A DNA stretch of 64,000 bases. Origin: a virus (Duplodnaviria; Caudoviricetes). Each line of letters opens with the position of its first letter. Position 1 is the stretch's first letter. This document shows positions 4,232 through 43,211 of this stretch, piece after piece. A model generated the notes under the pieces. The model saw only the letters and a list, made by a program, of their open reading frames with translations. It searched no databases and was not told where the DNA came from. The stretch is taken from the IMG/VR virus record IMGVR_UViG_3300020577_009322, positions 64,001 to 128,000 of that record. One strand, written 5' to 3'. Position numbers and translations under genes: made by a program.

Positions 4232-4450
4232 TTACCCCAACACCGGGCAATTAGGTGAGTTACCATTCTTTACCAATTTTAGAGTTGATTGATATAAATT
4301 TGTAGAAGTAGCCCAATTGACATCTAGAGGATATCCTCCCCATATCATAGAGCATATTACTTCATAAAGTTCTTTTTCTCTCTTCTTCCATTGATAGGGT
4401 AATGTCTTTCCATTTACCTCTTCATAGAAGTAGGTTATCTTCTTAGACAT
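4232..4450 (-). CDS. Hypothetical protein
   Basis: ORF track. Confidence 0.6.
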   Translation of the reverse strand: MSKKITYFYEEVNGKTLPYQWKKREKELYEVICSMIWGGYPLDVNWATSTNLYQSTLKLVKNGNSPNCPVLG

Positions 4451-4637
4451 ATATTATCTTGGTATTTTGATTATCATATTGCAGGGTGTCCAGGTTTGAG
4501 AAGGTTAAAAGAACAAAACAGGATAATCTGGACAAAAACATGGACAAAGCCAGCATGATGCTCTGGGCACCCTGTGAAATAGCCAAGATAACTGTCTTTT
4601 TCTGCATTCAGTTAAGCCCCATTTCAAAAGACGATTG

Positions 4638-4702
4638 CTACCTGGCGATCTCGATCTTTACTTTTTTATTCTTGATCTTCTCTTTTTTGATCAGTTCCAG
4701 CC
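4638..4702 (-). pseudogene. Fragment resembling the C-terminus of a Bacteroidota DbpA-type DEAD-box helicase
   Basis: LELIKKEKIKNKKVKIEIAR* with host-like codons (atc/aag/gag); recognised from memory. Confidence 0.45.
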
Positions 4703-4975
4703 AATTAATACTGTTACTTTATCATTACCTCTTAATTGCACCTTTCCGTCTTGAACTGTTACGCCTGGCAAATTTTGCATTGTTTGTAAAACCGAACCTC
4801 CACTTTGACTGATGTTATCTTCAACTTTAAAAGTCTTTTTATCCATTTCGGTAGTAGCAAGAGTAATTATTGTTCCCTTCTCTGTCTTTGTTCCCAATTT
4901 TAGTTGACTTTTAAGGCGCTCCAATGCGTCTTTTCTACGAATGTTTACCTGTCCACTACTTTGTGATAGCTTCAT
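4691..4975 (-). CDS. Chimeric ORF: phage N-terminus fused to a TonB-dependent receptor plug fragment
   Basis: MDKKTFKVEDNISQSGGSVLQTMQNLPGVTVQDGKVQLRGNDKVTVLI resembles a Bacteroidota TonB-dependent receptor plug. Confidence 0.65.
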   Translation of the reverse strand: MKLSQSSGQVNIRRKDALERLKSQLKLGTKTEKGTIITLATTEMDKKTFKVEDNISQSGGSVLQTMQNLPGVTVQDGKVQLRGNDKVTVLIGWN

Positions 4976-4991
4976 ACAAGAATTTTAATTA

Positions 4992-5201
4992 TTAATTAAT
5001 TGTTACATCACTTTCTGTCAGAAGAGATAATAATGCTCCTACAATATCCTTTACTGTAGCAACATCTCCGTTCTCTGATCCGGGAAATATTTCCTTAACG
5101 GAAGTATCTTCCCTCTTTCCATTAAGATCTTCACGTACCTGGTTCAGCCAATTCTTGTATTCTTCTTTTCTCTTCTTTAGATCTTCAAATCTGTATACCA
5201 T
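4992..5201 (-). CDS. Hypothetical protein (start corrected to MVYRFEDL)
   Basis: The upstream part of the track ORF is an off-frame read of the lipoprotein gene. Confidence 0.6.
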   Translation of the reverse strand: MVYRFEDLKKRKEEYKNWLNQVREDLNGKREDTSVKEIFPGSENGDVATVKDIVGALLSLLTESDVTIN

Positions 5202-16263: not shown

Positions 16264-16352
16264 TTTAATAAATTATTTTAACCTACCAAATTATTATCTA
16301 AAATAAATTTGGTAGGTTAATTTATTTTTCGTATATTTTAGAAAACCAACTA

Positions 16353-32173: not shown

Positions 32174-33385
32174 ATGAAAAAACTACAAAATTGTATTGTT
32201 GAAAACTGTATACCTACACCAACTTCTTGTAATGAATGGAATGGTGGAGAGATAACATATCTTGGTATATGTAATGGAGACTCTTTAAATAATGTAGTTT
32301 GGGAAATAGTTACTAAGCTACAAGCAATAGCAGGAGACGATTTATCTCAATTTGATTTAGATAGTTTACTTACAATATGTAATCAGCAAGCTCCATTAGA
32401 AGTTAATTTGATTAGTATTCTTAATTTGCTTAAGAACAATCAAATATGTCTTAAGGATTACATTGATACATTAAATGAAAAATTATCTGAATTATCAGGA
32501 GCAGGATCTGTTAATGTTAACTTAAAATGTTTTGCTGATTTTGATAATCTAGGTAATTCTCTATCAATAAATAGAGAGCAATTAGATCAGTTAGTTATTA
32601 ATGCATTATGTGACAATAAAGATCGTATAGAAACATTAGAGGGAAAAGTAATATTATTACAAAAAGAGATAGATGATATTGAAAATAATACAACAATAGA
32701 TGAATTATCTTTTGCTACTTGTATAGATCCAGGAATTAAGCCAACATCTTCTCAAGTTATAATTACAGCTCAAGAAGTCTGTGATTTAGAAACTGCTACA
32801 GGTATACCTACTGATATAGCTTCCGCATTATCTAAAACTGCAACTGATCTTAATCCTGAATTTGGATTAATACCTGGTTGGAATTTAACTCCATCAAATT
32901 GGGCACAGAATTATGGTAATCTTCTATTAGAAGTAGAAGCCTTAAGAAAGCGTCTTATTTTTATGGAGACTAACTGTTGTGCTATTACTTGTGATGATGT
33001 TAAGATTGGATTTACTGCAGTATTTAATGATGATATGACTAGTGTAATAATCAAATTTACTTCAGGTGCAGGAACAAATATACCTTCTGGATTCTTAGAT
33101 ATTGGCTCTACAATAACAATAACAGATGAACAGGGTAATATAGAAGAATTTAATACAGCTGCTCCAGATTTAATTGCTAATAATGCACAAATAGAAGTTC
33201 CAATATCTACATTGATGACAACAGGAGATGTTAATATAAATATTCAAAGTAATATAAGTAATGGTACACTAACATGTAGCAAATGTTCTAATAAGACTAT
33301 AAAGAGACCTTCTTGCTCATTCTGTATATTAACTGCAACAGATACTGTAACAGTTGTTTATAAGGTTTGTACTATAAATTCATAA
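32174..33385 (+). CDS. Cys-rich putative tail/fibre protein
   Basis: Coiled coils plus Cys clusters. Confidence 0.55.
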   Translation: MKKLQNCIVENCIPTPTSCNEWNGGEITYLGICNGDSLNNVVWEIVTKLQAIAGDDLSQFDLDSLLTICNQQAPLEVNLISILNLLKNNQICLKDYIDTLNEKLSELSGAGSVNVNLKCFADFDNLGNSLSINREQLDQLVINALCDNKDRIETLEGKVILLQKEIDDIENNTTIDELSFATCIDPGIKPTSSQVIITAQEVCDLETATGIPTDIASALSKTATDLNPEFGLIPGWNLTPSNWAQNYGNLLLEVEALRKRLIFMETNCCAITCDDVKIGFTAVFNDDMTSVIIKFTSGAGTNIPSGFLDIGSTITITDEQGNIEEFNTAAPDLIANNAQIEVPISTLMTTGDVNINIQSNISNGTLTCSKCSNKTIKRPSCSFCILTATDTVTVVYKVCTINS

Positions 33386-33394
33386 AATAATAAT

Positions 33395-34054
33395 ATGGCA
33401 TCATTACCAAAATGTATATATAAAACAATAGTATTATCTGCAGGTGAGACGTTTGTACTACCGCCTGGTGCGGAGGTAGTAAGTGTATCAAATAGTTCAG
33501 CAATATCGTCAAGTTGTCCTGGAGATTTACCTGAAGTAGCAATAAAATGCTATAGAATTAGATGGGTAGTAAATAAAGATCCGGAAGGAAGAATTACCTA
33601 TATTAGTCCTTTTTTAGGACCACAGGGAATTAGTATACCTAATACAAATAATGCTTGGGAAGATGATGATGATGATAGTTTACCAATAATAATTAACAAG
33701 GTTTATGTTGGTGGACAATTAGTTGATGCGGGATCTATAAATTGTAGAGATCTTGCTTCATTAGAAAGTGTAATTCATGGATCTAGTGGAGGTGGAGCAA
33801 TAACTGAAAGAAAATATTTAACAGGAACTCAATTGGGTGCTCTAACAGTAGCGGAAACAGTCAGTTGGGGAAGTCGTTGGAAATCAGGTTATGTATGGTT
33901 TGAAATATACTTTAAGGCACCTGAAGAAATAGGAAAACAGGTATATTTAGAATTAGGTGGAGGTAATGGAAATATAGCAGACATACCTCGTTTGTTTGCA
34001 GCTGAAATTGATTGTACCGCATATCCAACAACAACAGTAGTAACTAGTTGTTAA
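33395..34054 (+). CDS. Putative structural protein
   Basis: Beta-rich ORF in the structural operon. Confidence 0.55.
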   Translation: MASLPKCIYKTIVLSAGETFVLPPGAEVVSVSNSSAISSSCPGDLPEVAIKCYRIRWVVNKDPEGRITYISPFLGPQGISIPNTNNAWEDDDDDSLPIIINKVYVGGQLVDAGSINCRDLASLESVIHGSSGGGAITERKYLTGTQLGALTVAETVSWGSRWKSGYVWFEIYFKAPEEIGKQVYLELGGGNGNIADIPRLFAAEIDCTAYPTTTVVTSC

Positions 34055-34069
34055 AAATAAAATAATAAT

Positions 34070-34651
34070 ATGGCAGCTTGTTTAATAACAACAGGAGGGA
34101 CTTCAGGAACTTTAAGAATTGACTATAAATTAGGATCTGATAGTAATACTATCTTCTCAAATTATGGTGATATAATATATATTGATGATTCTGCTACAGA
34201 TATAACATACACACGATTAAGTGGAGATGTTACTGCAGCTTCTGGATGTGTAACAATAACTGCACGTCCACAAACATGTTATAAGTTTATATATGATACA
34301 GTTGATGGAACATCACTTCCAACCGATTCTACTATAGACGCTATAGTAGTTGGTACAACATATACATTCACAGAAGCTTCATACAGATTGTCTGGAACAG
34401 AGGCTATTATCTATGGTATAAATACCGAATTAAATAATGATAATATAAAAGTTACAGCAATCAAAGTTGATCAATTAACAGAACCATACTTTAATGTTTC
34501 TCTTATAGTAAAAATTATCGGGACAGATATTCCACGACTAAGAATTGTAACAACAAATGGTAATTATGTTTATCTAATTGGAACAGTATCGGTAGATTGT
34601 GTACCGAGTGGATATATTGATTTAAACACTTCCTCTATACCAGTAATTTAA
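34070..34651 (+). CDS. Putative structural protein
   Basis: Thr-rich beta ORF. Confidence 0.55.
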   Translation: MAACLITTGGTSGTLRIDYKLGSDSNTIFSNYGDIIYIDDSATDITYTRLSGDVTAASGCVTITARPQTCYKFIYDTVDGTSLPTDSTIDAIVVGTTYTFTEASYRLSGTEAIIYGINTELNNDNIKVTAIKVDQLTEPYFNVSLIVKIIGTDIPRLRIVTTNGNYVYLIGTVSVDCVPSGYIDLNTSSIPVI

Positions 34652-34662
34652 AAAAATAAAAT

Positions 34663-35634
34663 ATGCCTTGTAATACAACACCTTGTGATGATAAATGTTT
34701 ACCTTATAATCCATGTTATGATGATTGTGGTTGTTTAAACCCAACTACTTTTGAGTGTGTAACAAAACCTGGAACATGGCCTGCATTAGGAATTACTAAT
34801 GATATGAATGGGGTAGAGGCTTTAGAAGCCTTAAATACCGTTATTAATAATTTAACTATAACCCCGCCATCTCCTGGATCAGACGTTTATGTTAAAGCTA
34901 CATCTGCAGATACAACTGCAAACTACCTTTCTAGTAAGTTAGTAGTTGGAGCATTTTTAACAAAAACAATAGTAAATCCGTCAGGAAATGAACAAATTCG
35001 TCTGAATGTTTCACCTGCAGCCTTGGTTTCTTCTGATTCTGGAAATATTCTAGATATAGGAACTGATGGAAAATTACGTGCTATAGTTACTGTTCCTTTA
35101 CCTGATATTTCAGTAGTTGGAGGAAGTGGTGTAACTGTTACAGGAACAGGTCCATCATCAGATCCTTTTGTTGTATCAATAAATCCATCAATAGAAGTAG
35201 TAAGAAATTGCTTTGATAATGTATGGAGAGATGTTACATTAGTTGCTACAGGAAATGCTAATGTTGTTTATGTTAGTGGAATTCCAAAATATCGTTATCG
35301 TTTTGATGGAACAATAGAATTTAAAGGATCAGCAACTTATACTGTAGCTTTTGGAGCATATTCTACAGGAAATAGAAAATATACAATAACAATTGGGAAT
35401 ATTCCAACAACATGTGTAACATCAGGTGAGCAAGCGGGAGTATCTGACCTGAAGAATATCAATTATATAGATGTACCACAAGCTGGTGCAGATCAAATAA
35501 CGCAACAATATGGGTATATTATTAGAAAATCAACAGCCAATCTAATAGTAGAATTTCAGTCTTCTTTTACCTCATCAACAAGTAAAACAATTGTTGTTAA
35601 CTTCGAGGGAGCTATATCATACCCATCTCTTTAA
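34663..35634 (+). CDS. Putative tail fibre protein
   Basis: Cys-rich N-terminus; fibre-type segments. Confidence 0.6.
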   Translation: MPCNTTPCDDKCLPYNPCYDDCGCLNPTTFECVTKPGTWPALGITNDMNGVEALEALNTVINNLTITPPSPGSDVYVKATSADTTANYLSSKLVVGAFLTKTIVNPSGNEQIRLNVSPAALVSSDSGNILDIGTDGKLRAIVTVPLPDISVVGGSGVTVTGTGPSSDPFVVSINPSIEVVRNCFDNVWRDVTLVATGNANVVYVSGIPKYRYRFDGTIEFKGSATYTVAFGAYSTGNRKYTITIGNIPTTCVTSGEQAGVSDLKNINYIDVPQAGADQITQQYGYIIRKSTANLIVEFQSSFTSSTSKTIVVNFEGAISYPSL

Positions 35635-35670
35635 AAACTCGTGGTTAGTTGGTTCTCCACAAAATGAGTT

Positions 35671-35697
35671 AACGATCCGTTTCTACGGGTCGTTTTT
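35671..35697 (+). terminator. Intrinsic terminator ending the structural operon
   Basis: aacgatccgt-ttct-acgggtcgtt-ttt. Confidence 0.8.
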
Positions 35698-35710
35698 ACT
35701 TTAAAATAAA

Positions 35711-35742
35711 TTTGGTAAATTAAAAATAAAATCGTATATTTG
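35711..35742 (+). promoter_or_regulatory. Bacteroidota-type promoter for tRNA block 1
   Basis: TTTG-N20-TATATTTG. Confidence 0.8.
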
Positions 35743-35746
35743 CACT

Positions 35747-35824
35747 ATGAAAGCAGTAGAAAAATTGTATGGCTGCGGTTGTGGTAAACCAAAACCAGTA
35801 GTGGTTAAACCACCTTCAAGATAA
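35747..35824 (+). CDS. Micropeptide MKAVEKLYGCGCGKPKPVVVKPPSR
   Basis: Directly after the promoter. Confidence 0.45.
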   Translation: MKAVEKLYGCGCGKPKPVVVKPPSR

Positions 35825-35835
35825 AAATAAAAACT

Positions 35836-35922
35836 ATGATAACAGTAAATCATGCATGGCCCATCTTTACGCAATGTCCAACAGGACAATGTGAGGGACT
35901 GTGTACGTGTATTAAGAATTAA
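35836..35922 (+). CDS. Attenuator leader peptide 1 (MITVNHAWPIFTQCPTGQCEGLCTCIKN)
   Basis: H/W/P/F/T/Q/C codons match downstream tRNAs; contains the antiterminator strand. Confidence 0.75.
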   Translation: MITVNHAWPIFTQCPTGQCEGLCTCIKN

Positions 35923-35942
35923 CTCTTAACCACAACCGAACT

Positions 35943-35970
35943 AACCCCTCCATAAAAAGAGGGGTTTTTT
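35943..35970 (+). terminator. Attenuator terminator 1
   Basis: aacccctc/gaggggtt plus T-run, 5 nt before tRNA-Pro. Confidence 0.85.
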
Positions 35971-35975
35971 ATTAT

Positions 35976-36050
35976 CTAGATGTTCCACAGTTGGTTATAT
36001 GGGCTTGCCCTGGAAGCAAGTGTTCGTCAGTTCGAATCTGACCATCTAGA
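35976..36050 (+). tRNA. trnP: tRNA-Pro(UGG)
   Basis: cttgc-ccTGGaa-gcaag; cloverleaf. Confidence 0.85.
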
Positions 36051-36053
36051 CAT

Positions 36054-36125
36054 GCTTTCTTAATAGTAATGGTAGCTACTCTGTTTTGTAATCAGAAAGT
36101 GTCAGTTCGAGTCTGACAGAAAGCT
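36054..36125 (+). tRNA. trnT: tRNA-Thr(UGU)
   Basis: tctgt-ttTGTaa-tcaga. Confidence 0.8.
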
Positions 36126-36133
36126 CTTAACTT

Positions 36134-36205
36134 GGTCCTTTGGGTGAGTGGTTTAACTATTAGTCTGCAAAACTAATTACAGCAGTTCGAATCTGCTAGG
36201 GACCT
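36134..36205 (+). tRNA. trnC: tRNA-Cys(GCA)
   Basis: ttagt-ctGCAaa-actaa. Confidence 0.9.
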
Positions 36206-36274
36206 CAAAGGCTTGTCCTTGAAACAACCTTCCCGTGGAGGGAACTGTAAGACAGTTTAAATAAGAGGATAGCT

Positions 36275-36346
36275 GGAAATATAACTCAGTTGGTAGAGTG
36301 CCAGATTGAAGATCTGGTTGCATCAGTTCGATTCTGATTATTTCCA
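36275..36346 (+). tRNA. trnF: tRNA-Phe(GAA)
   Basis: ccaga-ttGAAga-tctgg. Confidence 0.9.
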
Positions 36347-36351
36347 CATAT

Positions 36352-36423
36352 ACGTGTGTAGTGTAGTTGGTAACACAGCAGTCTCCAAAACTGTATTCAC
36401 CTGTTCGAATCGGGTCATACGTG
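36352..36423 (+). tRNA. trnW: tRNA-Trp(CCA)
   Basis: gcagt-ctCCAaa-actgt. Confidence 0.9.
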
Positions 36424-36428
36424 CTTAT

Positions 36429-36499
36429 TTTCTTGTAGTGTAATGGTAACACATGAGATTTTGGCTCTCATATTTTAGGTTCGAGTCCTAACAAGAAAA
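36429..36499 (+). tRNA. trnQ: tRNA-Gln(UUG)
   Basis: tgaga-ttTTGgc-tctca. Confidence 0.9.
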
Positions 36500-36501
36500 C
36501 T

Positions 36502-36575
36502 GGTGATTATAGCATAATGGTAGTGCAAAAGTTTGTGAAGCTTACAGGTGGGAGTTCGAATCTCCTTAGTCACCC
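36502..36575 (+). tRNA. trnH: tRNA-His(GUG)
   Basis: aaagt-ttGTGaa-gctta; G-1. Confidence 0.85.
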
Positions 36576-36581
36576 TTATAA

Positions 36582-36657
36582 ACTCCGTTAGCTAAACTGG
36601 ATACGGCACCAGAATACGAATCTGGAGATTTTGAGGGTTCGAATCCTTCACGGAGTA
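36582..36657 (+). tRNA. trnR: tRNA-Arg(ACG)
   Basis: ccaga-atACGaa-tctgg. Confidence 0.9.
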
Positions 36658-36952
36658 CAATTTTAAATAATAATTTTCCTAAAATAAAATATATACTATA
36701 TCTTTGTTCTATGATAGGAAAAATAATAAAATCAGATATGAAATCTAGGATCAGTTATAATATAACTGGTTTAGATAAGGGAATATTATTTGTTAATAAA
36801 AATACATCATCATTATCTCCAGATGGATATGAAGGAAAATGTCCACAAGGGGAACTATTTAACAATAATGGAAATAGTTGGAGATCGAGTTGTTGATAGA
36901 GGGAGACTTTCTATAGAAGTAGATGAGAATGGATATGTTACTATAAAATAAA

Positions 36953-36984
36953 TTTGGTAATTGTTAAAAATAGTTGTATATTTG
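36953..36984 (+). promoter_or_regulatory. Bacteroidota-type promoter upstream of tRNA block 2
   Basis: TTTG-N20-TATATTTG. Confidence 0.8.
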
Positions 36985-37027
36985 TGCTGCACTGACCAAG
37001 TAGGCGTGTTACTAAAAATATACAAAC

Positions 37028-37333
37028 ATGAAGAGTACAATTAGAGTGGACTTTCAGGGTCCGGAGACATCGTCTCAAAATGGTTTTGAACCAGTTATTA
37101 GAGTAAATTTAGTAGAAAGTGATGACACACGAGATAAGTTACTAAAGACATTCTTTCAGTCATTAGGTGGAGAAAGTTCCTGGCTACATGTAAAACATGT
37201 AAAAATTGATCAATCGTGTCATTCTGGATTAATTAATGATAGTATAGTAATTACTCCAGTAAAAGAGGCTGATATTGAGAACTTGAAGAAAGAGATAGAA
37301 GATAGAATAAATGATAAGAGAAATATTTTTTAA
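37028..37333 (+). CDS. Hypothetical protein
   Basis: ORF track, after the promoter. Confidence 0.7.
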   Translation: MKSTIRVDFQGPETSSQNGFEPVIRVNLVESDDTRDKLLKTFFQSLGGESSWLHVKHVKIDQSCHSGLINDSIVITPVKEADIENLKKEIEDRINDKRNIF

Positions 37334-37350
37334 ACCTTAAATATAATAAT

Positions 37351-37461
37351 ATGATAATAGGATTAATTATTAGTGGAGTAGTGGGTTTCATAGTTGGAGC
37401 CTTGGTATTTAGAAATAATGCTAAAAAGGGAGAAGAAATTATTGATAATCTTAAAAAGTAA
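37351..37461 (+). CDS. Small single-TM protein MIIGLIISGVVGFIVGALVFRNNAKKGEEIIDNLKK
   Basis: Manual translation. Confidence 0.65.
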   Translation: MIIGLIISGVVGFIVGALVFRNNAKKGEEIIDNLKK

Positions 37462-37473
37462 TAAAGACAACTA

Positions 37474-37542
37474 ATGCAACAATTTTATATGATAGTTAGA
37501 AATATTTTAGGGGCGGATGAAAAATCTGGCTCTAGGGAATAA
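37474..37542 (+). CDS. Attenuator leader peptide 2 (MQQFYMIVRNILGADEKSGSRE)
   Basis: Run M-I(ATA)-V-R(AGA)-N-I(ATT)-L-G-A-D-E-K matches block 2 tRNAs; 3' end holds the antiterminator gctctaggg. Confidence 0.8.
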   Translation: MQQFYMIVRNILGADEKSGSRE

Positions 37543-37567
37543 TTTTACTATCTTATAATAGAAAGTT

Positions 37568-37604
37568 AACCCTGGAGCATATTAAGCTTCAGGGTTTTTC
37601 TTTT
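37568..37604 (+). terminator. Attenuator terminator 2
   Basis: aaccctggagc-atattaa-gcttcagggtt plus T-run, just before tRNA-Lys. Confidence 0.88.
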
Positions 37605-37609
37605 AAAAT

Positions 37610-37684
37610 ACCTTCGTAGCAAAATGTGGCTTTGCTCCTGACTTTTAATCAGAACAAAAATGGGTTCGACTTCCTTCGAAGGTA
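37610..37684 (+). tRNA. trnK: tRNA-Lys(UUU)
   Basis: cctga-ctTTTaa-tcaga. Confidence 0.8.
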
Positions 37685-37687
37685 CTT

Positions 37688-37762
37688 GGGATCTTAGCAA
37701 AAATGATATTTCTTCAGCCTCTTAAGCTGAATAAAAGTAGAGTTCGATTCTCACAGATCCCA
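37688..37762 (+). tRNA. trnK: tRNA-Lys(CUU)
   Basis: tcagc-ctCTTaa-gctga; atypical D-arm. Confidence 0.75.
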
Positions 37763-37772
37763 CATAAGTATA

Positions 37773-37804
37773 TTTGGTGGTTCGAAAATTATTTCGTATA
37801 TTTG
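37773..37804 (+). promoter_or_regulatory. Bacteroidota-type promoter of the HNH gene
   Basis: TTTG-N20-TATATTTG. Confidence 0.75.
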
Positions 37805-37808
37805 ATAT

Positions 37809-38339
37809 ATGAAAGAAAGAATAGAACAATTAAGAAAAGAAGGAAAAAGTTATAGTGAAATATCAAAGATAACTGGATTAGTCAAATCTACAATATCATA
37901 CTATGTAGGAAATAGAACTGGAAAAGGTAAGCTAACAGCTGAAAAAAGAAATTGTAGAAATTGTGAAAAAGAAATCAGTTCTCCAAAAGTTTTCTGTGAT
38001 AAAAAATGTGATTTTGAATATAAACAGAAACTTAGGTTAGATAAATTTGAAAAAAGCAATTTGTGTACAAATAATTCTATTAGAAAAGCACTTATTTCTA
38101 TAAATGGAAATAAATGCAGTATTTGTGAAATCTCTGAAATATGGAATGATAGGAAATTAACTATGCATGTAGATCATATTGATGGAAATTCTGATAATAA
38201 TGATAATAAAAATGTTAGATTAGTATGTCCTAATTGTCATTCTCAACTAGAAACATCTAAAAATAAAGTTAAAAAACAAACAAAAAGAAATAAATACTTA
38301 AGAAAATACAAAGGTTATATAGATGCCCCTGTCGTATAG
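37809..38339 (+). CDS. HNH homing endonuclease with N-terminal HTH, inserted in the tRNA array
   Basis: HVDHIDGN..N...NVRLVCPNCHSQ. Confidence 0.9.
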   Translation: MKERIEQLRKEGKSYSEISKITGLVKSTISYYVGNRTGKGKLTAEKRNCRNCEKEISSPKVFCDKKCDFEYKQKLRLDKFEKSNLCTNNSIRKALISINGNKCSICEISEIWNDRKLTMHVDHIDGNSDNNDNKNVRLVCPNCHSQLETSKNKVKKQTKRNKYLRKYKGYIDAPVV

Positions 38340-38397
38340 TGATTTAATATCTCTCTCTTACAAAGAGAAGACGGCAGTTTGATTCTGCACAGGGGTA
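38325..38397 (+). tRNA. trnV: tRNA-Val(UAC)
   Basis: tctct-ctTACaa-agaga; overlaps HNH stop. Confidence 0.8.
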
Positions 38398-38402
38398 CAA
38401 AT

Positions 38403-38474
38403 GGTTCTATAGTGTAATGATTAGCACAACTCTCTTCTAAAGAGTTAGTATAAGTTTGACCCTTGTTAGGACTA
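38403..38474 (+). tRNA. trnR: tRNA-Arg(UCU)
   Basis: actct-ctTCTaa-agagt. Confidence 0.75.
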
Positions 38475-38514
38475 CAGATGAGTTACCCTTCTCCGTGTAT
38501 TAAAAAGGGATAAT

Positions 38515-38589
38515 GTCTGAATAGCTGAGTTGGTTTCAAGCACTTGACTGTTAATCAAGAGTAGTTGGGTTCGATCCCCAAATCAGACG
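38515..38589 (+). tRNA. trnN: tRNA-Asn(GUU)
   Basis: cttga-ctGTTaa-tcaag. Confidence 0.9.
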
Positions 38590-38595
38590 CTTTAT

Positions 38596-38666
38596 TGTGC
38601 GGTGGTGTAATGGTAGCATATTGGGCTCATAACCCAATGATGAAAGTTCGACTCTTTCCTGCGCAA
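38596..38666 (+). tRNA. trnM: tRNA-Met(CAU), initiator-like anticodon stem
   Basis: ttggg-ctCATaa-cccaa (three consecutive G:C pairs). Confidence 0.85.
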
Positions 38667-38669
38667 CTT

Positions 38670-38885
38670 ATGAAAAATTACATAGAAGATCAAATTAGAA
38701 AAGGTTACAGGGTATACGACCTTAAAGAAATACTCGGAGAAACACCAATGCAATCAGATATAGATAATTTGATTGAAAAATTAGGTCCTAATAAGTTAGG
38801 TGAAGTTGATGAAAATGGTTATCTTTACGTGAAAACAGATCAATCGTGGAGAAATATTTTAGGACAGCGGATGGAGAAATGGTGA
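38670..38885 (+). CDS. Hypothetical protein (start MKNYIEDQ)
   Basis: Track ORF N-terminus overlaps tRNAs; ATG right after tRNA-Met. Confidence 0.6.
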   Translation: MKNYIEDQIRKGYRVYDLKEILGETPMQSDIDNLIEKLGPNKLGEVDENGYLYVKTDQSWRNILGQRMEKW

Positions 38886-39319
38886 ATATAATCTCTCACT
38901 GTAGAGAAATATTAGCAAAAGAACCAGATGCTAAGATATTAATTGGAACTGACTCACAGGATGAGGATGGAAAAAGTAAGTATTGTACTGTAATAGTATT
39001 TAGATATGGATTACGTGGTGCTCACTTTATCTACAGTAAGGATGATAGGAAAAAGATAAGAGATATTTTCACTCGTTTATTTACTGAGTGTGAGTACTCA
39101 CTAGAAATTGCTGAGCATATAACTAAGAATACTAGTTATAAAGTATCAACAATAGAGTTAGATTTCAATGATTTCAAGAAGACAAAATCAACACCTTTAA
39201 TATCAGCAACAAAGGGATGGTGTGAATCTTTAGGTTACTCAGCTACTCTAAAAAGTGGTGAAATGTTTGCTTGTAAAGCAGCAGATCATATCCTAAGACA
39301 TCCATCATTATATAAATAA
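38846..39319 (+). CDS. RNase H-like YkuK (DUF458) family protein
   Basis: LIGTDSQ, RLFTE, IELDFN, CKAADH. Confidence 0.8.
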   Translation: MEKYFRTADGEMVNIISHCREILAKEPDAKILIGTDSQDEDGKSKYCTVIVFRYGLRGAHFIYSKDDRKKIRDIFTRLFTECEYSLEIAEHITKNTSYKVSTIELDFNDFKKTKSTPLISATKGWCESLGYSATLKSGEMFACKAADHILRHPSLYK

Positions 39320-39347
39320 TACTTTCAAACAAAAATAAATTTAGTAA

Positions 39348-39421
39348 GCAGTATACGCATAAATGGTGGTGCACCAGTCTTCCAAATTGGAATAGAGTCA
39401 GTTCGATCCTGACATGCTGCA
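39348..39421 (+). tRNA. trnG: tRNA-Gly(UCC)
   Basis: ccagt-ctTCCaa-attgg. Confidence 0.85.
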
Positions 39422-39483
39422 CCCTTAAGAGAGATTAAATAAAGTCTGCAGCTTTTGGCCAATATTGGTTCTCTCTTTTGCAG

Positions 39484-39555
39484 GGCCCTTTCGTCTAATG
39501 TGTAGGACGACGCTCTTTCCAAGCGTAGATTTCGGTTCGAATCCGTGAGGGGCTA
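39484..39555 (+). tRNA. trnE: tRNA-Glu(UUC)
   Basis: acgct-ctTTCca-agcgt. Confidence 0.85.
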
Positions 39556-39561
39556 CAATAA

Positions 39562-39635
39562 GGTCTATGGATGTGGCAGGGTGTGGCTACTGGATTGTCA
39601 ATCCAGGGAGACGGGTTCGATCCCCGTATAGACCG
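39562..39635 (+). tRNA. trnD: tRNA-Asp(GUC)
   Basis: ctgga-ttGTCaa-tccag. Confidence 0.85.
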
Positions 39636-39692
39636 CAACGAGGAACATGGTAATTCATGTCTGAGGCTGAAAGAAGCAATCCCCTCGTCTAT

Positions 39693-39765
39693 GCTTCTAT
39701 AGCTCAATGGTCAGAGCAGGACGCTTATATCGTCAAGGTTTCCAGTTCGAGTCTGGATAGAAGTA
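39693..39765 (+). tRNA. trnI: tRNA-Ile(UAU)
   Basis: ggacg-ctTATat-cgtca. Confidence 0.8.
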
Positions 39766-39770
39766 CATAT

Positions 39771-39843
39771 TGGAGTGTAGCTCAAATGGTAGAGCGCCTG
39801 CCTGATACGCAGGAGGTACAGGGATCGTTACCCTGCATTCCAA
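39771..39843 (+). tRNA. trnI: tRNA-Ile(GAU)
   Basis: cctgc-ctGATac-gcagg. Confidence 0.85.
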
Positions 39844-39970
39844 CGGAGTGTTACGCATAGCCTCTCAACGATGTAGCGTTTCTCCTCGGTAGCCCGTCGA
39901 CGTAATCCGAGACAGTTCATTACCTAATAAGAATGAGTTAGGGAGATATGGGAAACCTGCTCCCGATTTT

Positions 39971-40043
39971 GGGGATAAAGCTCTAGTGGATGAGCATCTG
40001 CCTTGCACGCAGAAGGTTAGGAATTCGAGTTTCCTTATCTCCA
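39971..40043 (+). tRNA. trnA: tRNA-Ala(UGC)
   Basis: tctgc-ctTGCac-gcaga; G3:U70. Confidence 0.9.
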
Positions 40044-40089
40044 CAAATAAATTTGGTAAATATAAATATTTGTAGTATTATATAATATA

Positions 40090-40161
40090 ATGAAGAAACT
40101 ATATACATATTATTCGTTAAGTCTCTTGTCCTTAAATGGACTAGCTAGGAATACTATGTGA
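40090..40161 (+). CDS. Attenuator leader peptide 3 (MKKLYTYYSLSLLSLNGLARNTM)
   Basis: 11 of 12 consecutive codons are Leu/Tyr/Ser, matching block 3 tRNAs; contains the antiterminator agctagga. Confidence 0.8.
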   Translation: MKKLYTYYSLSLLSLNGLARNTM

Positions 40162-40192
40162 TAACAGTGGGCAATCGTTAGATCATTCGTGT

Positions 40193-40223
40193 AAATCCTG
40201 GCTTTAATTAGTCAGGATTTTTT
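40193..40223 (+). terminator. Attenuator terminator 3
   Basis: aaatcctggct-ttaatt-agtcaggattt plus T-run, just before tRNA-Leu. Confidence 0.88.
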
Positions 40224-40227
40224 ATTT

Positions 40228-40301
40228 GTGGGTATGGCGGAATTGGAATACGCAACAGGTTTAGACCCTGAAATTTAAGAGTTCGAGTCTCTTTACCCAT
40301 A
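40228..40301 (+). tRNA. trnL: tRNA-Leu(UAG), short variable arm
   Basis: acagg-ttTAGac-cctga. Confidence 0.85.
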
Positions 40302-40307
40302 CTATAT

Positions 40308-40381
40308 GTCCTTGTGATGGAATTGGAATACATGTCAGACTTAAAATCTGAATTTTACGGGTTCGAGTCCCGTCTTGGACA
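40308..40381 (+). tRNA. trnL: tRNA-Leu(UAA), short variable arm
   Basis: tcaga-ctTAAaa-tctga. Confidence 0.85.
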
Positions 40382-40386
40382 CATAA

Positions 40387-40469
40387 GGAAGAGCGCATTG
40401 TGAGAGCTTATCCGTCCTGAAAACGGTGAAGGTGTAATAGCTGTGAGAGTTCGATTCTCTCCTCTTCCG
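40387..40469 (+). tRNA. trnS: tRNA-Ser(UGA)
   Basis: tccgt-ccTGAaa-acggt; long variable arm; atypical D-arm. Confidence 0.8.
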
Positions 40470-40474
40470 CTTAT

Positions 40475-40557
40475 AGAGAAATGACAGAGTGGTAATGTAG
40501 CAGTTTGCTAAACTGTAGATGGTAACACATCCGTGAGTTCGATCCTCACTTTCTCTG
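40475..40557 (+). tRNA. trnS: tRNA-Ser(GCU)
   Basis: gcagt-ttGCTaa-actgt; long variable arm. Confidence 0.9.
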
Positions 40558-40562
40558 CAGAT

Positions 40563-40646
40563 GGGTATGATGGTAAATGTGGTTAAATCAGGAGACTGTA
40601 AATCTCTCGTCATTAGACTGTTGGAGTTCGATTCTGTACATACCCA
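40563..40646 (+). tRNA. trnY: tRNA-Tyr(GUA)
   Basis: ggaga-ctGTAaa-tctct. Confidence 0.9.
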
Positions 40647-40662
40647 CAATTATTTTTTTATT

Positions 40663-40706
40663 TAAATGGAGTCTTGTACCTTTGTTGGGCTAAGACTCCA
40701 TTTTTT
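40663..40706 (+). terminator. Terminator ending the tRNA array
   Basis: aaatggagtctt/aagactccattt plus T-run. Confidence 0.8.
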
Positions 40707-40853
40707 GTTCAGGCAGGAGGATACACTATGAAAATAGTGCTACTACGTCTAAGGATGCTTATGTCCCCTAAGTAGATTGGGAGGGGGCTGGGGGGTGGGT
40801 CAGAAAATAAATTAAAAATAAATTTCGCTATATCAAATATTCATTGTAACTTT

Positions 40854-41036
40854 GTGGAAACAAAACAGAAAAATATGACAAAGAAAATTACAGAACACTT
40901 GAAAAGAAACAACAGTTATTTTAAATGGTCAGCTAAAAGATTAGCAGATAAGTTTGGTTGTTCAGAAAGAACTATCACAAATATTATCAAGACTCTTGCA
41001 CCAGTTAAGAGAACTTATTTAAATAACTTAAAGTAA
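40854..41036 (+). CDS. Small HTH protein
   Basis: SAKRLADKFGCSERTI. Confidence 0.7.
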   Translation: METKQKNMTKKITEHLKRNNSYFKWSAKRLADKFGCSERTITNIIKTLAPVKRTYLNNLK

Positions 41037-41040
41037 GAGA

Positions 41041-41877
41041 ATGTTTAAGAAGGAAATAGAAGCTTTTTTACTAGAAAAAAGAGGATACTTGAAGAAGTCA
41101 CCTTTACATGTGGCTAAAGCTATATGGAAATCTTCAATAAAACACAGTAAACCAAAGACTCAAGCAGATGTAGAGAAAGAATTAGAGGTAATCAAGGATG
41201 TTCAGGCCACAATGAGACTAGTAACTGTCCATCCACAGGATTCTGCAGATAACAGTATTTTGGAAGCTTACGAAAAGATAGTAGCTGAGAAAAATCGTCC
41301 AAGAAAAAAGTTATTCTTTGATCTAGAAGTATCAGCTAATATCGTATTCTCTTGGAGAATTGGTAAGGATGTAGATCTATCACCAGATAGTATTATTCAG
41401 GAACGAGCTATTATATGTGCTTGTTATAAGTGGGAAGGAGATGATAGAGTTTATTCTCTAAAGTGGAATAAAGGTGATGATAAAGATTTATTAGAAAAAT
41501 TCTCAAAAATTATAGATTCAGCAGATGAGGTAGTTACCCAAAATGGGGATGCATTTGATATTAAGTGGTTAAGAACACGCTGTATCTATCATGGAATTCC
41601 AGTATCACCAAAGTTCAATTCAATTGATACTTTAAAAATGGCCAGAAGTGGGTTTAAATTTAACTCCAATAAATTAGATTATATGGGAAAGTTTCTGTCA
41701 CTTGGACAGAAAATAAAGACAGAATATAATTTATGGAAGGATATTACCTTAAATAACAGTAAGGTGGCTATGGATAAGATGGTTGAGTATTGCAAACAAG
41801 ATGTTACACTGTTAGAACAGGTATATCAAAAATTACAGGCTTTCTCACCAGTTAAGAAGTTCAAATACAAACTGTAA
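41041..41877 (+). CDS. RNase H-like (DEDD) 3'-5' exonuclease
   Basis: FFDLE, QNGDAFDIKW, IDTL, YCKQDV. Confidence 0.85.
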   Translation: MFKKEIEAFLLEKRGYLKKSPLHVAKAIWKSSIKHSKPKTQADVEKELEVIKDVQATMRLVTVHPQDSADNSILEAYEKIVAEKNRPRKKLFFDLEVSANIVFSWRIGKDVDLSPDSIIQERAIICACYKWEGDDRVYSLKWNKGDDKDLLEKFSKIIDSADEVVTQNGDAFDIKWLRTRCIYHGIPVSPKFNSIDTLKMARSGFKFNSNKLDYMGKFLSLGQKIKTEYNLWKDITLNNSKVAMDKMVEYCKQDVTLLEQVYQKLQAFSPVKKFKYKL

Positions 41878-41899
41878 TAAAAGTCCAAAACTACTGATT

Positions 41900-41930
41900 A
41901 CCCCTTATTCTTAAGGGGTTTTCTGTTTTT
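41900..41930 (+). terminator. Intrinsic terminator
   Basis: acccctta-ttct-taaggggt-tttc. Confidence 0.7.
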
Positions 41931-42018
41931 AACATATGAGGTTAATTTGTGTTTCTTATTAATTTTTAGTATATTGTAGTAGGAATAGTCCATAATTAAA
42001 TAATTTTATAAGTGAAAT

Positions 42019-42540
42019 ATGTATTCAAATGATTTGAAAGCTCCAAGAATGAAAAAATCTAAGTATACAGAACATGTTGTTACTGAAGATTTATATAGAG
42101 CTTTTAAGAAGAAGTTTCCAGAATATAAGAGGATGAAATGGAGAGAATTTTCAGATAAGTGGAATGATATAGCTGAGACTATTAGGCAGGAAGCCATTAC
42201 TAATCCACTGGGAGTAAAGCTGGGAAGTTATACAGGTGAACTAAAATTACAGTTCCATAAACCTGACCAGAAGATGTTAAATATTCCTCTATCAATGAAG
42301 TTAGGAAAAGCTATAAATTATGTTAACTTATTAACTAGAGGAAAAACGGCATCAATACGATGGGAAAGAAGATGGGCTGTAAAATTTAATAAAATACTAC
42401 AATTCTTTGCCTTCTCCCCTTGTAGGGAACTACATAAAATGGCCAAGAAACAAGTAGATACTAATCCAGATCGGTTAAGAATGATACGCCCAACTACCGG
42501 AGGATTTCATGTCTGGACTGAAATAAAAAAGAAGCTATGA
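42019..42540 (+). CDS. IHF-like protein of the crAss tail module
   Basis: GVKLG..GELKL pattern; synteny. Confidence 0.55.
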   Translation: MYSNDLKAPRMKKSKYTEHVVTEDLYRAFKKKFPEYKRMKWREFSDKWNDIAETIRQEAITNPLGVKLGSYTGELKLQFHKPDQKMLNIPLSMKLGKAINYVNLLTRGKTASIRWERRWAVKFNKILQFFAFSPCRELHKMAKKQVDTNPDRLRMIRPTTGGFHVWTEIKKKL

Positions 42541-43211
42541 CAAAGCGTACAGCAATAGATTTATTTAGGGAAGAATTAAGAGAAAGAAACGCTGATTCTA
42601 AATATAGTAATCAGTTTCTTTATAATGAGTTAATTAAACATTCTAGATGGCTAATTAAAAGAGAGGTATCTGGAGGACGTATTTATGTAAATAACTCATT
42701 CTTTCAGACCCTATCTTGTATAGAAGTAATAGAAACTTCTACAATAGATACATGTTGTCCAGTTAAGACAAATTGTAAAATATATCGTACAAAAAATAAG
42801 TTACCAGATATGTGGACTGATAATGGGGGACCTATTATCAAGGCTATAAACTCAGTTGATAATACTACTAAATTTATCTTTACTAATCCAACTACATGGC
42901 AAAGTAAGAGAAATGATCCATATTTAAAAATGGGAGATAATAAATATGTATTTTATAGTGATGGGTATTTATGGTTTCCTGAACATAATCCTCATCGTAT
43001 TAATGTATATAGTTTCTTTACTGATGATATTTCAGATAAAAACGAATGTACAGAAAATAAGTCATGTGTTCGTTTTTTAGATACTAAATTTATGTTACCA
43101 GATTGGTTAGAGGCAGAAATGTTTGCAAAAGCCTTAGAACAGGTAGCAGGAATAAGTAAGAAATTGCCTGAAGATGAACAAATCGATAAGAATGTTAACA
43201 GAAAAAATTAA
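42537..43211 (+). CDS. Putative tail ring protein
   Basis: Synteny in the crAss tail module. Confidence 0.55.
   Translation: MTKRTAIDLFREELRERNADSKYSNQFLYNELIKHSRWLIKREVSGGRIYVNNSFFQTLSCIEVIETSTIDTCCPVKTNCKIYRTKNKLPDMWTDNGGPIIKAINSVDNTTKFIFTNPTTWQSKRNDPYLKMGDNKYVFYSDGYLWFPEHNPHRINVYSFFTDDISDKNECTENKSCVRFLDTKFMLPDWLEAEMFAKALEQVAGISKKLPEDEQIDKNVNRKN

Follow-up and report, generated by a model that had tools for sequence, protein, structure and literature searches.

A predicted ribosome-mediated transcription attenuator ahead of the first tRNA block of a tailed phage

Transfer RNA (tRNA) genes carried by phages are usually viewed as constitutive aids to codon usage or as substitutes for tRNAs that host defences have removed and, to our knowledge, little has been described of how their expression is controlled. 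The locus described here, positions 35836 to 35970 of a 64,000-nucleotide stretch of a tailed virus (Caudoviricetes; IMG/VR record IMGVR_UViG_3300020577_009322), raises the question of whether transcription of such genes may be gated by translation, since a short open reading frame (ORF) and an intrinsic terminator lie directly ahead of the first of three blocks of tRNA genes. The window, by which we mean that whole stretch, corresponds to bases 64001-128000 of a virus record that is 155,463 bases long and has direct terminal repeats, and it holds 24 tRNA genes, all on the plus strand between 35976 and 40647. An original prediction, made from the letters of the window, had described the element as an attenuator sensing His, Trp, Pro, Phe, Thr, Gln and Cys. 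We report that the element is probably, as judged from sequence comparison and modelled folding, a ribosome-mediated (leader-peptide) transcription attenuator that gates the phage's first tRNA block. This reading is supported mainly by relatives of the window, in which the unit is conserved, codons read by the downstream tRNAs are clustered, the antiterminators are strong and the leader matches the tRNA content.

The features expected of an attenuator at the level of sequence are all present: a leader ORF 5' of the tRNAs, enrichment of cognate codons and an intervening intrinsic terminator. The parts are listed below; the coordinates and sequences that the original prediction had given proved exact.

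35836-35922, plus strand: leader ORF of 28 codons and a TAA stop, encoding MITVNHAWPIFTQCPTGQCEGLCTCIKN, kept as an ORF of 26-31 codons in 13 sequences.
35851-35880, plus strand: sensing zone, codons 6-15 (H A W P I F T Q C P), from ribosome-masked folding.
35854-35865, plus strand: region 1, gcatggcccatc, codons Ala7-Ile10, pairing with region 2 in the minimum-free-energy structure when no ribosome is present.
35889-35904, plus strand: region 2, of which 35889-35897, atg(t)gaggg, is the 5' strand of the antiterminator and 35893-35904 the partner of region 1.
35912-35929, plus strand: inner hairpin, ttaaga (35912-35917) with tcttaa (35924-35929), enclosed by the antiterminator in the folding.
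35943-35972, plus strand: intrinsic terminator, aacccctc (35943-35950) with gaggggtt (35959-35966), and a T tract at 35967-35972.
35976-36658, plus strand: tRNA block 1, Pro(tgg), Thr(tgt), Cys(gca), Phe(gaa), Trp(cca), Gln(ttg), His(gtg) and Arg(acg).

The terminator hairpin has 8 pairs, 5 of them G-C, a loop of 8 and an energy of -13.0 kcal/mol; a spacer of 20 bases separates it from the leader ORF, and region 3 (ccctccat, 35946-35953) overlaps its 5' arm and loop. The gene for tRNA-Pro starts 9 bases past the hairpin and 3 past its T tract. No copy of the promoter motif that precedes the leader, described below, occurs between this terminator and tRNA block 1 or within the block, and block 1 would therefore be transcribed only through the terminator at 35943-35966. 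Contigs from four DNA runs over 35650-36100 show no differences in the leader.

The composition of the leader is beyond chance. We counted a codon as in-set when it is read by the block-1 anticodons under strict wobble rules, excluded Met1 and took as background the 35,667 codons of the genome's long ORFs. In-set codons make up 14 of 27 in the leader against 17.3% of the background (P=4.4e-5), and at the level of amino acids the figures are 15 of 27 against 22.2% (P=1.7e-4). The leader covers seven of the eight block-1 specificities, with H, W, P, F, T, Q and C present and a CGN codon missing, just as had been claimed. Only 4 of the genome's 946 ATG ORFs of 15-60 codons, the leader being one, reach 11 in-set codons within a span of 14. 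Each of the genome's three leaders also matches its own tRNA block best, strict codon counts against blocks 1, 2 and 3 being 14/11/1 for leader 1, 3/12/2 for leader 2 and 1/7/10 for leader 3; the match of leader 2 is not significant when taken alone, because block 2 covers half of all codons.

How the position of a ribosome on this leader alters its folding was examined with a co-transcriptional model, in which the transcript is truncated ahead of the terminator's 3' arm and a ribosome is masked codon by codon. The cut transcripts were adopted after equilibrium folding of the full leader had given no effect of the ribosome in the window, and the footprint was assumed to reach from -15 to +12 of the A site, such that a shift of 3 nucleotides (nt) moves the permissive zone by one codon. 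Without a ribosome the 5' arm of the window's terminator is paired upstream with a probability of 0.07, because region 1 holds region 2. With the A site at codons 4-14 this probability rises to 0.74-0.83, at codon 15 it is 0.68 (about 0.5 when only the RNA 3' of the ribosome is folded), and at codons 16-26 it falls to 0.06 or below.

In the permissive fold A54-T55-G56, a bulged T57 and G58-G62 engage ccctc-cat and enclose the inner hairpin. The pairing of atg(t)gaggg at 35889-35897 with ccctccat at 35946-35953, which the original prediction had put forward, is returned by ViennaRNA once region 1 is masked. This duplex, proposed to disrupt the terminator, sequesters all 6 core bases of the 5' arm in the model, and the inner hairpin does span the stop codon, with 35920-35922 in its loop. 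The idea of four Cys codons as part of the sensor fares less evenly: the four codons are there, but only Cys14 lies inside the permissive zone, and at Cys19, 23 or 25 a stalled ribosome would sit over region 2, to the advantage of the terminator.

Relatives of the locus were sought with the structural protein encoded upstream, at 34663-35634, which returned 4, 11 and 14 loci in IMG/VR and metagenomes. After removal of duplicates and of contigs that end early, 12 further distinct leaders were kept, or 13 including that of the window. The loci dropped were L002, L007 and L008 (same leader as L001), L022 and L023 (same leader as L011), L013 and L016 (same records as L003 and L004), L005 and L006 (the window's own genome), and L017, L019, L020, L025, L027-L029 and L031, whose sequences break off either ahead of the structural gene or just behind it. 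Four metagenome leaders (L021, L024, L026, L030) were picked by a filter for short ORFs with more than 35% in-set residues, and their homology is evident from common nucleotide motifs and position. In a phage collection the window's DNA gave matches only at the level of tRNAs, and the structural protein had no tblastn match there.

The 12 leaders are 57-66% identical to that of the window. All 13 have an ORF that begins with ATG, runs for 26-31 codons and stops 22-33 nt ahead of a hairpin with a T tract, and in all 13 a tRNA or tRNA-like sequence starts within about 10-14 nt. The permissive zone, with the A site at about codons 2-15 when the RNA 3' of the ribosome is folded, likewise recurs in 13 of 13; inside it 143 of 204 codons are in-set, against 52 of 157 outside, counts that are descriptive only since the leaders are related. 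Eight relatives carry runs of 11-16 consecutive in-set codons: 16 in L010 (QRTHTQWFTCPQCPCT), 14 in L009 (QRTHTWFTCPQCPF) and in L021, 13 each in L001, L012 and L024, 12 in L014 and 11 in L030. The CGN Arg codon that the window's leader lacks is present in L009, L010/L011, L012, L021 and L024, and L009, which carries both tRNA-Gln(ttg) and tRNA-Gln(ctg), has both CAA and CAG in its leader.

The strength of the antiterminators was gauged as duplex energy against 1000 dinucleotide-preserving shuffles of the region-2 side. In the relatives the duplexes reach z = -2.4 to -6.4, with nine of ten at p<=0.02 and L014 at p=0.06. These antiterminators are bipartite: the terminator's 5' arm is bound by a GAGGG-type core (a shared GAGGG/CCCTC), and the spacer contributes an ATACATA-type stretch as the partner of a TGTATATGTAT-type one. 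Around the core the flanks vary by lineage yet stay complementary, as in L012 (TGTGAGGGTT with AATCCTCACA), L009 (GAAGGCTGC with GCAGCCTTC) and L003 (AAATTGAGGGTGGTT with AATCACCCTTGATTT). The whole 5' arm is sequestered by the antiterminator in 12 of the 13 sequences, and 8 of its 9 bases are in L009. Helix support here means energies of single sequences against shuffles together with inspection of the duplexes, not formal counts of covariation. In the window itself, 2% of 200 shuffles reach its value of 0.83 for the paired fraction of the 5' arm. The three terminators that stand ahead of tRNA blocks take ranks 1, 2 and 4 for upstream complementarity among the genome's 18 terminator-like hairpins, attenuator 1 being the fourth and, as had been anticipated, the weakest of the three.

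Leaders and tRNAs also change together. L003, L004 and L026 form one lineage (structural protein 33-40% identical) with a single tRNA-Cys behind the terminator, followed by a promoter and protein genes; the Rfam tRNA model finds exactly one tRNA in each of the whole 39-41 kb records of L003 and L004, which are fragments about 31-32% complete. Their leaders are Cys-rich (MIINKNIYEPCCAQCQIEGGCIICIKK and two variants), with five Cys and no His, Trp or Phe, and a Cys-Cys pair lies within the permissive zone. In L015 and L018, whose structural protein is 63% identical, there is no tRNA in the 3 kb downstream and no such leader ORF, and the whole L015 record has no tRNA. As read from these sequences, leader composition would track tRNA content through one or two evolutionary events in the predicted direction.

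Three further features separate the switch from the structural genes upstream.

35671-35694, plus strand: intrinsic terminator of the upstream structural-gene unit, 10 pairs, 5 of them G-C, with a T tail.
35706-35742, plus strand: promoter-like repeated motif, AAATAAATTTGGTAA-N17-GTATATTTG (TTTG / TAnnTTTG type).
35747-35824, plus strand: first small ORF, MKAVEKLYGCGCGKPKPVVVKPPSR, 25 codons, for a GCGCG peptide with homologues in L001, L003, L004, L009, L010 and L015.

The terminator at 35671-35694 closes the unit of gene 34663-35634 and isolates the leader transcript from upstream transcription. The promoter-like motif, which we take to be of the Bacteroidota TTTG/TAnnTTTG type, is repeated: its 11-mer has 19 matches in the window at no more than one mismatch, where shuffles give 5.9 +/- 2.6, the copies at 35708, 36950 and 40049 being exact, and the full two-box motif stands in a shared context at 16308, 35711, 36953 and 37773. 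The copy at 35706-35742 is the sole one placed to serve tRNA block 1. The same two-box motif precedes the leaders of the relatives. In the form AAATAAATTTGG-N17-19-GTATATTTG (window 16308, 35711, 36953, 37773 and 40049, and the relatives) it is often followed by an ATG 4 bases after the second box, which suggests leaderless or near-leaderless mRNAs.

The ORF at 35747-35824 is a conserved peptide gene outside the switch itself, parted from the leader ORF by an 11-base A-rich gap; its peptide has no family in Pfam or PHROGs at E<=0.1. The corresponding ...YGCGCG(K/G)(P/K)... mini-ORF is found at 9095-9139 in L001, 9500-9598 in L003 and about 9496-9588 in L004, and also in L009, L010 and L015. 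It accompanies the leader unit in varying positions: it precedes the leader in the window and in L001, lies behind tRNA-Cys in L003 and L004, and stands by itself in L015, which has no tRNA.

From these parts we infer a promoter, translation of the leader, stalling and regulated read-through, which would work together as follows. Transcription would start at the 35706-35742 motif and the leader would be translated while RNA polymerase moves on. A ribosome delayed within codons 6-15 (His, Trp, Pro, Phe, Thr, Gln, Cys and Pro), the very codons read by the tRNAs encoded just downstream, would cover region 1. Region 2 (atg-t-gaggg), once freed, would pair with region 3 (ccctccat) and occupy the 5' arm of the terminator, and with the terminator blocked the polymerase would read through into tRNA-Pro to tRNA-Arg. 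Under fast decoding the ribosome would cover region 2, or sit at the stop between regions 2 and 3, and the terminator would form; with no ribosome at all, pairing of region 1 with region 2 would let it form too. The outcome would be a negative feedback loop that produces these tRNAs when their decoding is limiting.

Several observations weigh against this reading. The copy in the window is the weakest on every measure: its antiterminator duplex of -12.7 kcal/mol is unremarkable among shuffles (z = -0.8, p=0.21; with an earlier geometry p=0.125 and 0.057, against <=0.027 in seven relatives), its longest in-set run is 6 (FTQCPT), the shortest among relatives with a full block, and Arg(acg) has no codon in its leader. 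At equilibrium the window's terminator has a probability of 0.75-0.80 at every ribosome position (the six outermost pairs being taken as its core, a choice that lowered the values for L009, L003 and L012), with a margin of 4.2 kcal/mol in stability favouring the terminator state over the antiterminator state; in the relatives this margin runs from -2.7 to +9.0 kcal/mol. The constrained folding that the original prediction had proposed as its check gives a divided answer: in the co-transcriptional model the antiterminator forms with the A site at codons 4-15, but it is not competitive at equilibrium, and the greater stability of the terminator state means that the window's switch could work only kinetically, during transcription. 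The copy in the window looks partly eroded. For the 13 truncated leaders, aligned with MAFFT, RNAalifold returned no consensus pairs; in that alignment region 3 and L014 are misaligned by the variable spacer. The agreement among the 13 leaders is that of related sequences and not of 13 independent observations, the filter that picked L021, L024, L026 and L030 is circular for composition, and the putative promoter at 35706-35742 is proposed on the repeated motif only.

Two of the points against concern the relatives' tRNAs. In L001, L010 and L011 a promoter and an HNH gene separate the terminator from the intact tRNA block, and the block there would thus also have a promoter of its own. What appears to be the 5' half of a tRNA lies directly behind the terminator in these loci (L001 9361-10016; L010/L011 about 4400-5041), followed by the promoter motif, the HNH endonuclease gene and an intact tRNA-Pro, and in L010 a matching 3' half lies downstream of the new tRNA; in sequence the arrangement looks like the insertion of a homing endonuclease into the first tRNA gene of the block. 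HNH genes occur elsewhere in the window's tRNA array (37809-38339). In L014, ARAGORN and Rfam find no Thr, His or Trp tRNAs despite the codons in its leader. Three tRNA-size gaps in L014 fold as cloverleaves with seven-base loops bearing UGU, GUG and CCA, only one of the three better than shuffles, and these folds tentatively suggest tRNAs that would match the leader codons. Such gaps between detected tRNAs, missed by ARAGORN and the Rfam tRNA model, lie at 4816-4887, 5124-5195 and 5203-5273 in L014 and at 4893-4966 (UGG) in L030; their modelled cloverleaves may mark divergent or decaying tRNA genes.

Could the leader instead be an ordinary small gene, for a Cys-rich micro-protein (C-x4-C-x3-C-x-C) with its own terminator, the tRNAs being made by constitutive leaky read-through and the codon match being a coincidence or shared ancestry? 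The identity of the peptide to its L001 counterpart, about 55%, is close to that of the neighbouring structural protein (65%), and a C-terminal motif, CEGxCxCI, is kept in most relatives; the ordinary energy of the window's antiterminator and the split of the unit from the intact tRNA block in L001, L010 and L011 would fit as well. The candidate was mostly rejected on the evidence of L014, which translates the conserved GAGGG...TGTATGTATACTAA stretch in a phase different from that of all the others, ending ...ISGGALYVY, and so loses the Cys motif, yet still has the GAGGG core, the terminator and, in THTTCPQWFTPT, an in-set run. Because L014 reads it out of phase, the 3' half of the leader is conserved as RNA and not as a Cys-rich peptide; its TGT triplets complement the ACA/CAT codons in region 1 and in the spacer stretch. 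The 28-residue leader peptide has no family in Pfam or PHROGs at E<=0.1, the ORF is missing from phages without the tRNAs, each of the genome's other two leaders, 2 and 3, fits its own block, and neither the strength of the relatives' antiterminators nor the placing of in-set codons within the permissive zone is expected of a micro-protein. We consider it unlikely.

Conservation of the 3' half as RNA would also suit an element that acts independently of translation, its helices sensing tRNA directly (in the manner of a T-box), a protein or temperature, or serving the processing of the tRNA precursor, with the ORF incidental; in L003, L004, L009, L010 and L014 the antiterminator indeed forms by default without a ribosome. 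Against such an element stand the ATG, the frame of 26-31 codons and the position of the stop, kept in every leader despite 34-43% divergence, and a 5' half that is conserved as a run of particular amino-acid codons and not as a helix. A cmscan search of 33000-43000 against Rfam at E<=1 gave tRNA-type and a few weak chance matches, and none, T-box (RF00230) included, in 35700-35975. A T-box-like element was rejected on the lack of an Rfam match and on the conserved ORF, the latter being the reason why a ribosome read-out is favoured over a T-box, and a translation-independent element of any kind strikes us as quite improbable. That a random short ORF and terminator should have come to lie ahead of the tRNA block by chance is scarcely credible: other short ORFs do equal the leader in in-set density and its antiterminator energy is ordinary, but the leader is a single ORF in a defined position, enriched at the significance given above, and its unit is conserved in 12 other distinct sequences.

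Some neighbours of the unit merit a brief description. The segment at 40387-40468 gives no tRNA with ARAGORN and a weak Rfam match of the tRNA-Sec type (24.8 bits), and shows a TGA in the loop by eye; the syntenic gene in L001 is tRNA-Ser(tga), and the segment is probably a fifth tRNA of block 3, Ser-tga. Short ORFs for hydrophobic products (MIIGLIISGVVGFIVGALVF..., MWFIFGILLGFFIG...; window 37351-37461, L001 9143-9220) are scattered among the leader units and are possibly small membrane peptides. The structural protein at 34663-35634 and its homologues share an invariant Cys-rich N-terminus (...PCYD-CGCLNPTTFEC...) and match no family except DUF5114, below threshold; the neighbouring ORFs at 32174-34651 are likewise Cys-rich.

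The proposed attenuator resembles those of amino-acid operons, of which trpL, hisL, pheL and leuL and the multivalent thrL and ilvL of enterobacteria are the classical leader-peptide examples. Common to both are a short leader, enriched regulatory codons and an intrinsic terminator, and the phage unit would share, by prediction, translation of the leader, a read-out of ribosome position and a four-region RNA with alternative 1:2, 2:3 and 3:4 pairings. In the trp attenuator, too, the antiterminator is less stable than the terminator and the switch is kinetic. Unlike these systems, the present unit is phage-borne and has tRNA genes, not enzymes, as its target, its signal would be the speed of decoding as set by the tRNA pool and not amino-acid supply only, and it samples seven to eight amino acids, mostly once or twice, instead of a single one in a run; it has no sequence match to the Rfam leader families. 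The pheM leader attenuator of pheST is similar in placing a component of translation under leader-peptide control, with feedback on the supply of charged tRNA, and differs in controlling phenylalanyl-tRNA synthetase, in its single specificity and in being chromosomal. T-box riboswitches are alike in using a terminator/antiterminator switch to report the state of a tRNA and in governing aminoacylation-pathway genes; unlike the proposed unit, they bind uncharged tRNA directly without any need for translation and use one specifier codon.

A parallel is offered by the trn operon of Anabaena sp. PCC 7120, a long accessory tRNA array that is induced under translational stress, with higher expression once translation is impaired, and whose control is ascribed to a protein repressor, TrcR (PMC8421152, PMC10272220). 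The wording 'attenuat', 'leader peptide' or 'terminator' is absent from the portions of the two texts that were consulted. We found no account of leader-peptide attenuation of tRNA genes in full-text searches of the literature, supplements aside.

On balance we also lean towards a more general proposal, that in large tRNA-carrying phages each tRNA block is under closed-loop control by a leader mini-gene that serves as a checklist of the block's codons. The leader would gauge how fast ribosomes decode and the terminator would open only when decoding is slow, be it through a mismatch in codon usage, shut-off of the host, or cleavage or depletion of tRNAs by its defences. In such a system attenuator 1 would serve as the His/Trp/Pro/Phe/Thr/Gln/Cys(/Arg) channel, and the make-up of the leaders would evolve together with that of the tRNAs, a phage left with tRNA-Cys alone having a leader reduced to a Cys-rich one. 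The succession of promoter, checklist ORF, terminator and tRNA would offer a sequence signature with which such units may be sought in metagenomes. If the proposal is true, a textbook mechanism has been turned to a new class of target and to many specificities at once, giving a compact natural sensor of the charged-tRNA pool and testable predictions on when phages need their tRNAs, and a virus would possess direct feedback from the speed of decoding to the supply of tRNA.

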